Notes under the pieces: model-generated
The model's database searches: none
The model's input: only the letters and a program-made list of their open reading frames with translations
Told to the model about the DNA's origin: nothing
In this document: piece by piece, positions 2,286 through 58,208 of the stretch
Layout of the letters: each line of letters starts with the position of its first letter
Numbering within the stretch: position 1 is the first letter of the stretch
Assembly (NCBI RefSeq): GCF_013315695.1
Contig: NZ_CP054353.1
Origin: Escherichia coli
Lineage (GTDB): Bacteria; Pseudomonadota; Gammaproteobacteria; Enterobacterales; Enterobacteriaceae
Length of the DNA stretch: 64,000 nt
Strand: one strand, 5' to 3'
Position numbers and translations under genes: made by a program

Positions 2286-5200
2286 ATGAAACGACATCTG
2301 AACACCAGCTACAGGCTGGTATGGAATCACATTACGGGCACCCTGGTGGTGGCCTCCGAACTGGCCCGCTCACGGGGAAAACGCGCTGGTGTGGCGGTTG
2401 CGCTGTCTCTTGCTGCTGTCACATCAGTCCCGGCACTGGCTGCTGACAAGGTTGTACAGGCGGGAGAAACCGTGAACGACGGAACACTGACAAATCATGA
2501 CAACCAGATTGTCCTCGGTACGGCCAACGGAATGACCATCAGTACCGGTCTGGAGTATGGGCCGGATAACGAGGCCAATACCGGCGGACAATGGATACAA
2601 AATGGCGGTATCGCCAACAACACTACTTTCACCGGTGGTGGTCTTCAGAGAGTGAATGCCGGAGGAAGCGTTTCAGACACGGTTATCAGTGCCGGAGGCG
2701 GACAGAGCCTTCAGGGGCAGGCAGTGAACACCACTCTGAACGGCGGTGAGCAGTGGGTACATGAAGGCGGGATTGCAACGGGTACCGTCATTAATGAGAA
2801 GGGCTGGCAGGCCATCAAATCCGGCGCAGTGGCAACCGACACGGTTGTGAATACCGGCGCGGAAGGGGGACCGGATGCGGAAAATGGTGATACCGGGCAG
2901 ACCGTCTACGGAGATGCCGTACGCACCACCATCAATAAAAATGGTCGTCAGATTGTGGCTGCTGAAGGAACGGCAAATACCACTGTGGTTTATGCCGGCG
3001 GCGACCAGACTGTACATGGTCACGCACTGGATACCACGCTGAATGGGGGGTACCAGTATGTGCACAACGGCGGTACGGCGTCTGGCACTGTTGTAAACAG
3101 TGACGGCTGGCAGATTGTCAAAAACGGGGGTGTGGCCGGGAATACCACCGTTAATCAGAAGGGCAGACTGCAGGTGGACGCCGGTGGTACAGCCACGAAT
3201 GTCACCCTGAAGCAGGGCGGCGCACTGGTTACCAGTACGGCTGCAACCGTTACCGGCATAAACCGCCTGGGAGCATTCTCTGTTGTGGAGGGTAAAGCTG
3301 ATAATGTCGTACTGGAAAATGGCGGACGCCTGGATGTGCTGACCGGACACACAGCCACTAATACCCGCGTGGATGATGGCGGAACGCTGGATGTCCGCAA
3401 CGGTGGCACCGCCACCACCGTATCCATGGGAAATGGCGGTGTACTGCTGGCCGATTCCGGTGCCGCTGTCAGTGGTACCCGGAGCGACGGAAAGGCATTC
3501 AGTATCGGAGGCGGTCAGGCGGATGCCCTGATGCTGGAAAAAGGCAGTTCATTCACGCTGAACGCCGGTGATACGGCCACGGATACCACGGTAAATGGCG
3601 GACTGTTCACCGCCAGGGGCGGCACACTGGCGGGCACCACCACGCTGAATAACGGCGCCATACTTACCCTTTCCGGGAAGACGGTGAACAACGATACCCT
3701 GACCATCCGTGAAGGCGATGCACTCCTGCAGGGAGGCTCTCTCACCGGTAACGGCAGCGTGGAAAAATCAGGAAGTGGCACACTCACTGTCAGCAACACC
3801 ACACTCACCCAGAAAGCCGTCAACCTGAATGAAGGCACGCTGACGCTGAACGACAGTACCGTCACCACTGATGTCATTGCTCAGCGCGGTACAGCCCTGA
3901 AGCTGACCGGCAGCACTGTGCTGAACGGTGCCATTGACCCCACGAATGTCACTCTCGCCTCTGGTGCCACCTGGAATATTCCCGATAACGCCACGGTGCA
4001 GTCGGTGGTGGATGACCTCAGCCATGCCGGACAGATTCATTTCACCTCCACCCGCACAGGGAAGTTCGTACCGGCAACCCTGAAAGTGAAAAACCTGAAC
4101 GGACAGAATGGCACCATCAGCCTGCGTGTACGCCCGGATATGGCACAGAACAATGCTGACAGACTGGTCATTGACGGTGGCAGGGCAACCGGAAAAACCA
4201 TCCTGAACCTGGTGAACGCCGGCAACAGTGCGTCGGGGCTGGCGACCAGCGGTAAGGGTATTCAGGTGGTGGAAGCCATTAACGGTGCCACCACGGAGGA
4301 AGGGGCCTTTATCCAGGGGAATAAGCTGCAGGCCGGTGCCTTTAACTACTCCCTCAACCGGGACAGTGATGAGAGCTGGTATCTGCGCAGTGAAAATGCT
4401 TATCGTGCAGAAGTCCCCCTGTATGCCTCCATGCTGACACAGGCAATGGACTATGACCGGATTCTGGCAGGCTCCCGCAGCCATCAGACCGGTGTAAGCG
4501 GTGAAAATAACAGCGTCCGTCTCAGCATTCAGGGCGGTCATCTCGGTCACGATAACAACGGCGGTATTGCCCGTGGAGCCACGCCGGAAAGCAGCGGCAG
4601 CTATGGCTTCGTCCGTCTGGAGGGTGACCTGCTCAGAACAGAGGTTGCCGGTATGTCTGTGACCGCGGGGGTATATGGTGCTGCTGGCCATTCTTCCGTT
4701 GATGTTAAGGATGATGACGGCTCCCGTGCCGGCACGGTCCGGGATGATGCCGGCAGCCTGGGCGGATACCTGAATCTGATACACAACGCCTCCGGCCTGT
4801 GGGCTGACATTGTGGCCCAGGGAACCCGCCACAGCATAAAAGCCTCATCGGACAATAACGACTTCCGCGTCCGGGGCCGGGGCTGGCTGGGTTCGCTGGA
4901 AACCGGTCTGCCCTTCAGTATCACTGACAATCTGATGCTGGAGCCGCAACTGCAGTACACCTGGCAGGGACTCTCCCTGGATGACGGCCAGGATAACGCC
5001 AGTTATGTGAAGTTCGGGCATGGCAGTGCACAACATGTGCGTGCCGGTTTCCGTCTGGGCAGCCACAACGATATGACCTTTGGTGAAGGCACCTCATCCC
5101 GTGACACCCTGCGCGGCAGTGCCAAACACAGTGTGCGTGAACTGCCGGTGAACTGGTGGGTACAGCCTTCTGTTATCCGCACCTTCAGCTCCCGGGGGGA

Positions 5201-53979: not shown

Positions 53980-54437
53980 CAACTCAGGTCCGCAAAAACG
54001 TCATGGATATGTTTATCGATGGTGCGCGCCGTGGCTTTACTATCGCCACGACCAACCTGCTGCCAAACGTGGTGATGGCGTTTGTCATCATTCAGGCGCT
54101 GAAAATTACCGGCCTGCTCGACTGGGTGGGGCATATCTGTGAACCCGTAATGGCGCTGTGGGGATTACCCGGTGAAGCGGCAACCGTCCTTTTAGCCGCA
54201 TTAATGAGTATGGGTGGCGCAGTCGGTGTTGCCGCCAGTCTGGCAACCGCTGGCGCATTAACCGGTCACGATGTCACCGTTTTACTGCCCGCGATGTATT
54301 TAATGGGCAACCCGGTGCAAAATGTCGGTCGCTGCCTGGGGACAGCCGAAGTGAATGCCAAATATTACCCGCATATCATTACGGTCTGCGTGATTAACGC
54401 ATTGCTGTCGATCTGGGTTATGCAGCTTATTGTTTAA
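53976..54437 (+). CDS. yjiG: SpmB-like inner membrane protein
   Basis: 153-aa ORF overlapping yjiH stop (ATGA). Confidence 0.8.
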   Translation: MTTQVRKNVMDMFIDGARRGFTIATTNLLPNVVMAFVIIQALKITGLLDWVGHICEPVMALWGLPGEAATVLLAALMSMGGAVGVAASLATAGALTGHDVTVLLPAMYLMGNPVQNVGRCLGTAEVNAKYYPHIITVCVINALLSIWVMQLIV

Positions 54438-54449
54438 CAAGGAGTTACC

Positions 54450-55622
54450 ATGATTGATTATACCGCAGCCGGTTTTACCCTGCTGCAGGGAGCGCATTTG
54501 TATGCGCCGGAAGATCGGGGAATTTGCGATGTCCTCGTCGCTAACGGCAAAATTATCGCCGTTGCCAGTAATATCCCTTCTGACATTGTACCGGACTGCA
54601 CGGTTGTCGATCTCAGCGGGCAGATCCTCTGCCCAGGTTTTATTGATCAACACGTCCATTTGATTGGCGGTGGCGGCGAAGCAGGTCCCACGACGCGCAC
54701 GCCGGAAGTGGCGTTAAGTCGTCTGACGGAAGCAGGCGTCACGTCAGTGGTTGGTCTGCTGGGCACCGACTCTATCTCTCGCCACCCGGAATCCCTGCTC
54801 GCCAAGACCCGTGCGCTCAATGAAGAAGGCATCAGCGCCTGGATGCTGACCGGCGCTTATCATGTCCCTTCCCGCACTATTACGGGTTCCGTGGAAAAAG
54901 ACGTGGCGATTATCGATCGCGTGATTGGCGTGAAATGCGCCATCTCTGATCACCGTTCTGCCGCACCGGACGTTTATCACCTGGCTAATATGGCGGCGGA
55001 ATCCCGCGTTGGCGGTTTGCTCGGCGGTAAACCTGGCGTCACCGTGTTCCACATGGGCGACAGCAAAAAGGCGTTACAGCCTGTCTATGACCTGCTGGAA
55101 AACTGCGATGTGCCGATTAGCAAGTTGCTGCCGACCCACGTTAACCGCAACGTTCCGTTGTTTGAGCAGGCGCTGGAGTTCGCGCGCAAAGGCGGCACCA
55201 TCGATATCACCAGCAGCATTGACGAACCAGTCGCCCCTGCCGAAGGTATTGCCCGCGCCGTTCAGGCGGGTATTCCGCTGGCACGCGTCACCCTCAGCTC
55301 CGACGGCAACGGTAGCCAGCCGTTCTTCGATGACGAAGGGAATTTAACCCATATCGGTGTTGCCGGTTTTGAAACGTTGCTGGAAACCGTGCAGGTGCTG
55401 GTCAAAGATTATGATTTCAGTATCAGCGATGCCCTGCGCCCGCTCACCAGTAGCGTAGCCGGTTTCCTTAACCTGAGCGGGAAAGGCGAAATTCTGCCAG
55501 GCAATGACGCAGACTTACTGGTCATGACGCCAGAATTACGTATTGAGCAGGTATACGCTCGCGGCAAGCTGATGGTCAAAGACGGCAAAGCCTGCGTGAA
55601 AGGAACGTTTGAAACGGCATAA
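54450..55622 (+). CDS. iadA: isoaspartyl dipeptidase
   Basis: 390-aa amidohydrolase with HVHLIGGGGE metal-binding motif. Confidence 0.9.
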   Translation: MIDYTAAGFTLLQGAHLYAPEDRGICDVLVANGKIIAVASNIPSDIVPDCTVVDLSGQILCPGFIDQHVHLIGGGGEAGPTTRTPEVALSRLTEAGVTSVVGLLGTDSISRHPESLLAKTRALNEEGISAWMLTGAYHVPSRTITGSVEKDVAIIDRVIGVKCAISDHRSAAPDVYHLANMAAESRVGGLLGGKPGVTVFHMGDSKKALQPVYDLLENCDVPISKLLPTHVNRNVPLFEQALEFARKGGTIDITSSIDEPVAPAEGIARAVQAGIPLARVTLSSDGNGSQPFFDDEGNLTHIGVAGFETLLETVQVLVKDYDFSISDALRPLTSSVAGFLNLSGKGEILPGNDADLLVMTPELRIEQVYARGKLMVKDGKACVKGTFETA

Positions 55623-55686
55623 ACGGTTGTCAGCCGCCCGAATGGACGTAGAATGCCCGCAAGGGCGGCTGACAGAGTAAAACGTA

Positions 55687-56598
55687 ATGGATGACTGTGG
55701 TGCGGTTTTGCATAATATTGAAACTAAATGGCTTTATGATTTTCTGACCCTGGAAAAATGCCGCAATTTTTCCCAGGCAGCAGTCAGTCGCAACGTCTCG
55801 CAACCGGCATTCAGCCGCCGCATCCGTGCGCTGGAACAGGCGATTGGCGTTGAATTGTTTAACCGCCAGGTGACGCCGCTGCAACTCTCGGAACAAGGTA
55901 AAATATTCCATTCGCAGATCCGCCATCTGTTGCAACAGTTAGAGAGCAACCTTGCAGAACTCCGTGGTGGCAGCGATTACGCGCAACGCAAAATTAAAAT
56001 AGCCGCTGCACACTCTCTTTCCCTCGGGCTGTTACCGTCCATTATCAGCCAGATGCCGCCGCTCTTTACCTGGGCAATTGAAGCTATTGATGTCGATGAA
56101 GCGGTCGATAAACTGCGTGAAGGGCAAAGTGACTGTATTTTTTCCTTTCACGACGAAGATTTGCTGGAAGCGCCGTTTGACCACATTCGCTTATTTGAAT
56201 CTCAATTGTTCCCCGTTTGCGCCAGTGACGAACACGGAGAAGCACTTTTTAACCTCGCGCAGCCACACTTTCCGTTACTGAATTACAGCCGCAACTCCTA
56301 CATGGGGCGATTGATTAATCGCACCCTGACGCGCCACAGTGAGTTAAGTTTCAGCACCTTTTTTGTCTCTTCGATGAGCGAGCTTTTAAAGCAGGTTGCC
56401 CTCGACGGCTGTGGGATTGCCTGGCTACCGGAATACGCCATCCAACAAGAAATTCGCAGCGGGCAGCTCGTTGTACTGAATCGGGACGAACTGGTGATCC
56501 CGATTCAGGCCTATGCATACCGGATGAATACCCGCATGAATCCAGTTGCCGAACGCTTCTGGCGTGAACTGCGCGAGCTGGAGATTGTGCTTAGCTGA
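55687..56598 (+). CDS. hypT: LysR-type transcriptional regulator (hypochlorite-responsive HypT/YjiE)
   Basis: 303-aa LysR-type product with N-terminal wHTH ([29 protein letters not shown]). Confidence 0.85.
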
Positions 56599-56983
56599 CA
56601 TTCTCCAGCGTCGCACTGCGCCAACCGCCATTATCCCAGACCAGATCAAACGTTAGCGATTCATCGTCGTGATACAGCATTATCTCAAGGCTGATCGCCA
56701 GAGTGTGGCAGTACGCTTCTTTCAAATTAACCTGCAACGCCGCAATCCGTGGCTCATGAAATAACAGTGCAGAACGCAGCTGACGGCAATACCAGCTCTG
56801 GAGATGTTTGTCGCTCGGGTTATGCACTTGCCACTCGGGCATGCCTGAAACAAGTAATGACGGTAATGCCGAATGAGGAGAATTAAAAAGAGTGAGGAGA
56901 TCGCTGCATACTGATTTACGCAGCGGTGACGTTTTATTGCCTGAAATTTCAGGTAAAACAGCCTGAAGTGATTGGCGCATCAT
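56591..56983 (-). CDS. iraD: anti-adaptor protein IraD
   Basis: 130-aa product [25 protein letters not shown]...; convergent with and overlapping hypT 3' end. Confidence 0.8.
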
Positions 56984-57440
56984 TTTGCGCACTCCTGACG
57001 TTTAGCAACATATGCGGCTTGCCCTGAACACCGGGCACCACTGTATTGATGCTCATTTTCCATAGCCATTCCCTTTTGTTCATTACATCCATGTCAGTCT
57101 GAGACAGGCCTGAATCCTGTCAGCAAAGTATAAAACCTTACTTGCCTATGAATATCTACTGACTTTTCAGGAAAAAAGTCATGATTTGATAAAAATCATC
57201 AAACTCAAAAAAAAACCGCTAGTATATTCTGAATATTCCGAATAGTTACGTAGATGAAAATACTTGTCACCACCGCTACTTAATTCCGGTGGGAAATTAT
57301 TTATTTCCGCATAATCAGCCATGTATTATTTAAAACAATTAGTTTGTAAATAATATAAATTGATAACATATCAAATACATCAAAAATACCATTCACAGGC
57401 ATTATTAATATAGACATCAATATAGCAACATCAAATTCCA

Positions 57441-58208
57441 GGTAATGACTCCAACTTATTGATAGTGTTTTATGTTCAGATAATGCCCGATGACTTTGTC
57501 ATGCAGCTCCACCGATTTTGAGAACGACAGCGACTTCCGTCCCAGCCGTGCCAGGTGCTGCCTCAGATTCAGGTTATGCCGCTCAATTCGCTGCGTATAT
57601 CGCTTGCTGATTACGTGCAGCTTTCCCTTCAGGCGGGATTCATACAGCGGCCAGCCATCCGTCATCCATATCACCACGTCAAAGGGTGACAGCAGGCTCA
57701 TAAGACGCCCCAGCGTCGCCATAGTGCGTTCACCGAATACGTGCGCAACAACCGTCTTCCGGAGCCTGTCATACGCGTAAAACAGCCAGCGCTGGCGCGA
57801 TTTAGCCCCGACATAGCCCCACTGTTCGTCCATTTCCGCGCAGACGATGACGTCACTGCCCGGCTGTATGCGCGAGGTTACCGACTGCGGCCTGAGTTTT
57901 TTAAGTGACGTAAAATCGTGTTGAGGCCAACGCCCATAATGCGGGCTGTTGCCCGGCATCCAACGCCATTCATGGCCATATCAATGATTTTCTGGTGCGT
58001 ACCGGGTTGAGAAGCGGTGTAAGTGAACTGCAGTTGCCATGTTTTACGGCAGTGAGAGCAGAGATAGCGCTGATGTCCGGCGGTGCTTTTGCCGTTACGC
58101 ACCACCCCGTCAGTAGCTGAACAGGAGGGACAGCTGATAGAAACAGAAGCCACTGGAGCACCTCAAAAACACCATCATACACTAAATCAGTAAGTTGGCA
58201 GCATCACC
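57441..58208 (-). mobile_element. IS1 (768 bp), simple insertion with 9-bp target duplication
   Basis: InsA/InsB proteins identical to the copy at 43244-44011; CAAATTCCA on both flanks. Start set from the ORF track; my base count of the printed lines gave 57439, a 2-bp ambiguity. Confidence 0.9.

Follow-up and report, generated by a model that had tools for sequence, protein, structure and literature searches.

We analysed a 64,000-nucleotide stretch of Escherichia coli DNA (hereafter the window) in which two genes on the + strand, iadA and hypT, are separated by a spacer of 64 nt. iadA (54450-55622, stop codon TAA at 55620-55622) encodes a beta-aspartyl peptidase and is the last gene of yjiH-yjiG-iadA; hypT, also called yjiE or qseD (55687-56598), encodes a LysR-type hypochlorite-responsive regulator. 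Both coding sequences were delimited from open reading frames and RefSeq annotation, that of matching E. coli records in the case of iadA, and both gene names were confirmed by the RefSeq annotation of matching genomes. The N terminus of the HypT reading frame, MDDC, agrees with the published 'Cys4' numbering. The iadA-hypT region is present in 5,389 of 5,426 complete E. coli genomes. HypT (YjiE/QseD) is among the few hypochlorite-specific regulators of enterobacteria, and we found no account in the literature of what sets its level. At its 3' end hypT overlaps the 3' end of the convergent gene iraD by 8 nt (56591-56598), an overlap that leaves no room for a terminator, so that transcription of each gene must continue antisense into the other. 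Disrupted alleles of hypT were seen in two E. coli strains. Strain 106 (L004, 588-645) carries an early premature stop (TGGCTTTAAG) and RefSeq places the start 57 nt later; this HypT/QseD variant is N-terminally truncated, and the palindrome described below is intact with two loop substitutions. In strain ETEC4075 (L006, 2693-2705) a deletion fuses the C terminus of iadA to the middle of hypT, with loss of the palindrome and of the hypT N terminus, and both genes are annotated as pseudogenes.

The spacer between iadA and hypT contains a long palindrome. A repeat search identified two 12-nt arms, at 55628-55639 (TGTCAGCCGCCC) and 55663-55674 (GGGCGGCTGACA), that are 100% complementary and lie 23 nt apart, and RNAfold adds a U55627.G55675 pair to give a 13-pair helix. 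The left arm of this helix, (T)TGTCAGCCGCCC, therefore spans 55627-55639 and the right arm, GGGCGGCTGACA(G), spans 55663-55675 on the + strand, on either side of a 23-nt loop (GAATGGACGTAGAATGCCCGCAA, 55640-55662). The helix starts 5 nt past the iadA stop and ends 11 nt short of the hypT ATG. As RNA, the + strand folds with -30.8 kcal/mol (z = -4.1) and the - strand with -31.0 kcal/mol (z = -4.7), and for neither strand was any of 200 dinucleotide shuffles as stable. The palindrome folded as single-stranded DNA gives -15.3 kcal/mol (z = -3.8). The first-pass annotation had described a perfect stem of about 12 bp between the iadA stop and hypT with no T-run after it, and this description is borne out by the complementarity of the arms, by the + strand folding energy relative to shuffles and by an empty terminator scan.

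The window contains three perfect inverted repeats whose arms reach 12 bp or more and whose loops do not exceed 40 nt, against 0.2 +/- 0.4 expected in first-order Markov simulations. We conclude that the palindrome is not a product of chance. Its arm sequence occurs once per strand, with no second copy elsewhere in the window. A scan of 54000-57500 with the covariance models of Rfam 15 (E <= 10) gave no match at the palindrome, and the hairpin is annotated neither in the RefSeq records that we inspected nor in Rfam. Other repeats were noted along the way. The longest perfect inverted repeat of the window is a 15-bp repeat at 23116-23148 (TCTGCTCCATATCTC / GAGATATGGAGCAGA) with a 3-nt loop and no T-run; a perfect 12-bp repeat with a loop of 20 nt lies at 2029-2072 (AAACGATCGATA / TATCGATCGTTT), and the hypT coding sequence holds a perfect 11-bp repeat at 56476-56508 (CTGAATCGGGA / TCCCGATTCAG). 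Part of the right arm (55664-55672, GGCGGCTGA) is also perfectly complementary to 55811-55819, the FSRR codons in the helix-turn-helix of hypT, and positions 55621-55638 and 55802-55819 are 78% alike. This complementarity is probably due to chance, and we rejected an alternative pairing of the right arm with 55811-55819, as a partner fixed by the FSRR codons cannot follow the changes in the inner arms that are described below.

We detected a sigma-70-like promoter site inside the palindrome, a feature absent from the first-pass annotation. A -35-like hexamer in the left arm (TTGTCA, 55627-55632, five of six matches to TTGACA) is followed, after a 16-nt spacer, by a -10-like hexamer in the loop (TAGAAT, 55649-55654, also five of six), which amounts to 10/12 matches. 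In a consensus scan of 55000-56200 this was the sole promoter-like site. Sites scoring this well number 15 when both strands of the window (128 kb) are counted, so that a chance occurrence within a 64-nt spacer, oriented toward hypT, is unlikely. The geometry of the site places the predicted start of hypT transcription at an A at 55661-55662, 7-8 nt past the -10, which would make the right arm approximately the first 13 nt of the hypT leader. In E. coli K-12 (NZ_CP152466.1) position 55661 corresponds to about 4,558,345 on the minus strand. A weak Shine-Dalgarno sequence of hypT, AGAG (55674-55677), straddles the 3' foot of the helix, and orthologs have AGGA, AGGT or AGGTGAT there. Among orthologs, the -35-like hexamer is invariant in Escherichia, Salmonella, Citrobacter, Pluralibacter and the junction L208, the -10-like hexamer reads TAGAAT, TAAAAT or TACAAT, and the spacer is fixed at 16 nt throughout the E. 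coli-type clade defined below. Variation in the -10 is confined to its third position, which matters least. The 5' two-thirds of the loop, including the -10, is conserved, and the remaining third, 3' of the -10, differs in sequence and length. Judged by its sequence, the site appears to be under promoter-type conservation, with hexamers and spacer held and -10 position 3 free.

The position of this site changes which transcripts can form the hairpin. With a predicted start at about 55661, just 5' of the right arm, both arms would be present only in RNA that reads through from iadA. The predicted leader of own-promoter transcripts, 25-26 nt long, begins with the right arm, lacks the left arm and is unstructured (z = +0.67). 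In more distant clades the arrangement differs in detail: Hafnia has a -10-like GATAAT or GCTAAT and, on our reading of the sequence, no -35 at a usable spacing, and in Serratia fonticola a TAGAAT is located in the right arm. The predicted start falls at or past the right arm in every clade, so that an own-promoter transcript would never carry the whole helix. Genomic SELEX with RpoD lists a site between iadA and yjiG and none in the iadA-hypT spacer. We found no start for hypT in the transcript-end literature that we consulted (Adams 2021, Dar and Sorek 2018, SMRT-Cappable-seq, Cappable-seq, a Rend-seq annotation paper and a Term-seq study of 3' UTRs); iadA, yjiE and hypT are absent from the Term-seq tables that we searched, and neither gene had a mapped transcript end in these sources.

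Among E. coli strains the spacer hardly varies: two variable positions were seen, both in the loop. Near-identity over so short an evolutionary distance carries little weight. We therefore compared other enterobacteria. A scan for HypT in one genome per species gave 73 loci, and iadA lies directly upstream of hypT in Escherichia spp., Salmonella arizonae/diarizonae, the Citrobacter amalonaticus group, Pluralibacter, Entomohabitans and Hafnia; additional junctions were taken from contigs encoding IadA and HypT relatives. We aligned 19 iadA-hypT junctions of the E. coli type, from Escherichia, Salmonella, Citrobacter, Pluralibacter, Entomohabitans and L208. In this alignment 85.7% of cells are paired, and sliding the 3' partners by 1-3 columns lowers pairing to 24-43%. 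Changes on both sides of a pair account for 13 cells at five pairs, compared with 4.1 +/- 1.6 in shuffled alignments, none of which reached 13 (0/500). The left arm is invariant over its outer 10 nt in 17/19 junctions; its inner 3-4 nt change together with the right arm. In Citrobacter sp. Awk4, NCU1 and R56 the inner pairs CCC/GGG have become TTC/GAG; C. amalonaticus has arm changes of the TGT/ACA type, Pluralibacter has TCC/GGA, and in L208 the inner stem is CACCA/TGGTG, fully compensated. In Salmonella the helix is lengthened to 15-17 bp. These compensating changes arose in separate lineages. Pairs of a possible inner helix within the loop are invariant or vary inconsistently and provide evidence neither way.

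The position of the helix relative to hypT is also maintained. In all members of the E. coli-type clade, 10-11 nt separate the right arm from the hypT ATG, and the Shine-Dalgarno sequence begins with the last two nucleotides of the stem. In Salmonella a 54-nt insert separates the iadA stop from the palindrome, and the distance from palindrome to hypT ATG is still 11 nt. This insert (L013 and L014, ~2380-2435; L203, 2674-2730) has a hairpin of its own, without a T-run. The conservation that the first-pass annotation had left to be looked up is there: the helix is kept at every iadA-hypT junction sampled except that of Entomohabitans, whose helix is degenerate. Scanning metagenomes with the outer arms added little diversity. 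The scan returned 120 stretches, of which 77 are identical to E. coli and a few are Citrobacter or O157 variants; the remainder are palindromes of different lengths with no relation to the element, in line with the chance matches that a 20-base pattern would produce.

Beyond the E. coli-type clade the helix is re-made from other sequences. Hafnia paralvei, a Hafnia-like contig and S. fonticola have helices of 15-20 bp whose arms differ from those of E. coli. The H. paralvei arms (CTGTTGTCGCGTTGCGTCTC / GAGACTCGGTGCGACAACAG) form 19/20 pairs, three of them G.U. The Hafnia-like contig has CC where H. paralvei has TT, forming C-G pairs in place of U.G, and its helix contains one G.U pair. In S. 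fonticola we found another helix of 15 bp with two G.U pairs and a 4-nt loop. The junction segments of these three lineages fold 8-17 kcal/mol better on the + strand than on the - strand. In the E. coli-type clade the strand bias is mixed, as single C.A mismatches in S. diarizonae and P. lignolyticus would be G.U on the - strand.

We next considered which gene arrangements carry the element. The palindrome is missing wherever iadA is not followed by hypT: the 3' side of iadA has REP-like hairpins in C. freundii and C. rodentium (L200, L202) and a canonical terminator in Enterobacter hormaechei (L201). In these three species yjiH-yjiG-iadA occupies another chromosomal site, beside bcp/gcvR/dapA or groES, and in the C. 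freundii group the hypT-like gene (60% identity) is found at a different location. We examined and rejected a counterpart in Edwardsiella, whose hypT orthologs have no iadA upstream; there GC-rich inverted repeats flank a TATAAT, changes in the left arm are uncompensated, and we take the repeats for low-complexity chance matches. Homologs of hypT at ~43-60% identity (the C. freundii-group copy, Providencia, Proteus, Pectobacterium, Dickeya and others) showed no comparable hairpin. The absence of the palindrome without hypT, together with the uncompensated repeats without iadA, indicates that the element is specific to the co-directional iadA-hypT junction, the only gene order that would place both arms on a read-through RNA. 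Two further observations concern these relatives. A small dyad, ATGTGAATT-N4-AATTCCCAT, recurs 60-160 nt upstream of hypT homologs of 50% identity in Pectobacterium, Dickeya and Brenneria (L058-L070), and from its sequence it looks like a classical regulator box. In Photobacterium sp. JCM 19050 (L073) an iadA-like gene (44% identity, 623-1519) is divergent beside a hypT-like gene (43%, 2501-3358). The association of iadA with hypT may predate their co-directional order.

Three features speak for a structure in + strand RNA and against an operator bound by protein: the covariation, the helices re-made from other sequences, and the G.U pairs. The first-pass annotation had offered a regulator binding site as one interpretation, and we consider a DNA operator unlikely, if the best placed of the alternatives. 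The arms would then be inverted half-sites, 35 bp apart centre to centre, and a repressor binding there as a dimer or tetramer would bracket both the -35 and the +1 of hypT. The arms do lie exactly over the -35 and the +2 to +13 region, and their outer 9-10 bp are invariant in four genera. The inner positions, however, covary and are not conserved, the Hafnia and Serratia arms differ in sequence, and the one to three G.U pairs per helix would be mismatches in duplex DNA. The Edwardsiella orthologs, with no iadA upstream, show no compensated palindrome. Autoregulation is common among LysR-type regulators, and HypT itself is one candidate for such a repressor. On our reading of the sequence the arms are not LysR boxes of the T-N11-A form. 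A 158-bp 'hypT promoter' fragment is shifted by HypT in electrophoretic mobility shift assays, although the protein excess was 300-fold (PMC3792123). For reduced Salmonella HypT, a docking model suggests a pair of DNA motifs spaced by 25-30 nt; in Salmonella, hypT mRNA is unchanged with HOCl (PMC6397515). The footprinted Salmonella HypT sites TTACGTTATCATTCA and AACCCTTCCTTTTCA have no match near the palindrome at up to three mismatches. A 7-mer over the hypT start codon, AACGTAA, is shared with the HypT footprint motifs, within what chance would give.

A second possibility, a weak non-canonical intrinsic terminator, is in our view improbable. Here the hairpin alone would stop or pause a fraction of the RNA polymerases leaving iadA. 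Its GC-rich stem of 12-13 bp (-30.8 kcal/mol) directly past the stop codon is like that of an intrinsic terminator, and the yjiH-yjiG-iadA operon of E. hormaechei does end in a canonical one. The description 'terminator-like' in the first-pass annotation accordingly holds for the shape of the element; canonical intrinsic termination does not. E. coli RNA polymerase requires a U-tract for efficient hairpin-dependent release. Taking a U-run as at least 5/8 U starting 0-2 nt past the stem, we found none after the stem in E. coli (the 12 bases past it are GAGTAAAACGTA) or in any ortholog sampled, and a terminator consensus scan of 55000-56200 returned 0 sites. The loop is 21-23 nt (17-23 nt across the E. 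coli-type clade) rather than the 3-8 nt of intrinsic terminators. The right arm, moreover, lies downstream of the nested promoter, so that a terminator would not protect that promoter.

We regard a structure in - strand RNA as very improbable. In that case the hairpin would end antisense transcripts entering hypT from convergent iraD, whose overlap with the hypT 3' end leaves no terminator room; the E. coli - strand folds equally well, and the C.A mismatches of the two orthologs would be repaired as G.U. Against this, the Hafnia and Serratia lineages fold 8-17 kcal/mol worse on the - strand, there is no T-run directly past the stem on that strand either, and the antisense RNA would have to survive ~900 nt untranslated. 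That the dyad symmetry is a functionless by-product of the promoter is just as hard to credit, for the promoter-like hexamers account for part of the conservation and leave unexplained both the invariance of the right arm and the compensatory changes in at least five lineages, with the helix re-made in Hafnia and Serratia. A promoter regulated by cruciform extrusion was judged unlikely in view of the 23-nt loop and the G.U pairs.

Our preferred interpretation, held with middling confidence, is a boundary hairpin that forms on read-through RNA around a nested hypT promoter and is not a classical terminator. The palindrome would act as a + strand RNA stem-loop at the boundary of two expression units, with a hypT promoter nested in it whose -35 belongs to the left arm and whose -10 belongs to the loop; transcription would begin 1-2 nt ahead of the right arm. 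If this promoter fires, its transcripts would carry the right arm only, in an open leader. If transcripts run on from yjiHG-iadA, they would carry both arms and form a helix of about -30 kcal/mol with no U-tract, which most likely does not terminate RNA polymerase. Two effects on such RNA may be envisaged. The hairpin could block 3'-to-5' exonucleases, so that a stable yjiHG-iadA mRNA with its 3' end at the hairpin would remain. In addition, the hypT ribosome-binding site would abut the base of a highly stable helix, and translation of hypT from read-through RNA should be reduced. The two effects may reinforce each other, as poorly translated hypT RNA would invite Rho and then be trimmed back to the hairpin.

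Folding calculations bear on the second effect. Across nine taxa, the calculated cost of opening positions -20 to +12 relative to the hypT start is 17-27 kcal/mol on read-through transcripts and 6-10 kcal/mol on own-promoter transcripts, which makes this footprint 10-17 kcal/mol dearer to open on the former. The Shine-Dalgarno sequence alone is just 0-5 kcal/mol harder to open in read-through RNA; its first 2 nt are paired in the helix, and the hypT AUG is free. The S. fonticola hairpin is 18-30 nt away from the start codon, a spacing that argues against occlusion of the ribosome-binding site as a universal property. Of the two, an exonuclease barrier is the more general effect, and crowding of the ribosome-binding site is plausible in the E. 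coli-type and Hafnia clades. With regard to Rho, the first 80 nt downstream of the hairpin have C/G = 0.53, a G-rich composition that is not rut-like, and bubbles with C/G of 1.4-1.9 begin at ~55736 and ~55976.

A stronger version of this interpretation is possible, and we put it forward tentatively. In it a 'promoter-in-hairpin' module would insulate hypT from the operon upstream. Selection would preserve the complementarity between the -35 region of the hypT promoter and the initial 13 nt of the hypT leader, such that HypT would be made efficiently solely from its own promoter; read-through RNA would fold, be translated poorly at hypT and be trimmed to a stable iadA 3' end.

The element may be compared with three described systems. 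At steady state, Rho-dependent transcripts of E. coli end at stable stem-loops that lack a U-tract and shield them from PNPase and RNase II (Dar and Sorek 2018, PMC6061677). Like that class, the iadA-hypT hairpin is stable, lies just past a coding sequence and has no uridine-rich tail and no upstream A-tract, and by analogy its expected role would be that of a barrier to PNPase and RNase II. Unlike that class, it is known from sequence and not from a mapped 3' end, its loop is 23 nt in place of terminator-like loops, the 80 nt downstream are G-rich and not C-rich, and it encloses a promoter-like site of the next gene. It also resembles the REP/BIME stabilisers, for example that of malE-malF, in being a stable hairpin that lies between two genes of like orientation and would give the upstream part of the mRNA a longer life than the downstream part. 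We rejected membership of that repeat family, in that the hairpin is present in a single copy in the window and has no REP consensus, and metagenome matches sharing its sequence appear to be the same element.

The third comparison is with the transposase genes of IS10 and IS50. In these elements the resident promoter lies between complementary segments, and only incoming transcripts fold, hiding the translation signals of the transposase. The iadA-hypT junction is alike in that the predicted hypT start at 55661-55662 falls between the arms and that the own-promoter leader is unstructured in silico. It differs in that only 2 nt of the hypT Shine-Dalgarno sequence are inside the helix and the AUG is free, and in that hypT is a chromosomal regulator gene and not part of a mobile element. 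Sequestration of initiation signals by a hairpin of the IS10/IS50 type is mentioned in a recent preprint (10.1101/2025.01.24.634351).

What the element means for enterobacteria depends on which of these effects operates. If the hairpin is only a stabiliser of the upstream mRNA, it is an ordinary member of a described class. If HypT is indeed shielded from read-through, a housekeeping stress regulator would be employing the protection logic of IS10 and IS50, preserved in several genera through compensatory changes, and a fold-back device of insertion sequences would work in core genes too. The architecture, a nested promoter together with a hairpin specific to read-through RNA, would uncouple the dosage of the regulator from the neighbouring yjiHG-iadA operon. 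The junction would also exemplify a hairpin without a U-tract that is selected as RNA and is yet no terminator, a kind of element that automatic annotation ignores and that shapes operon boundaries.
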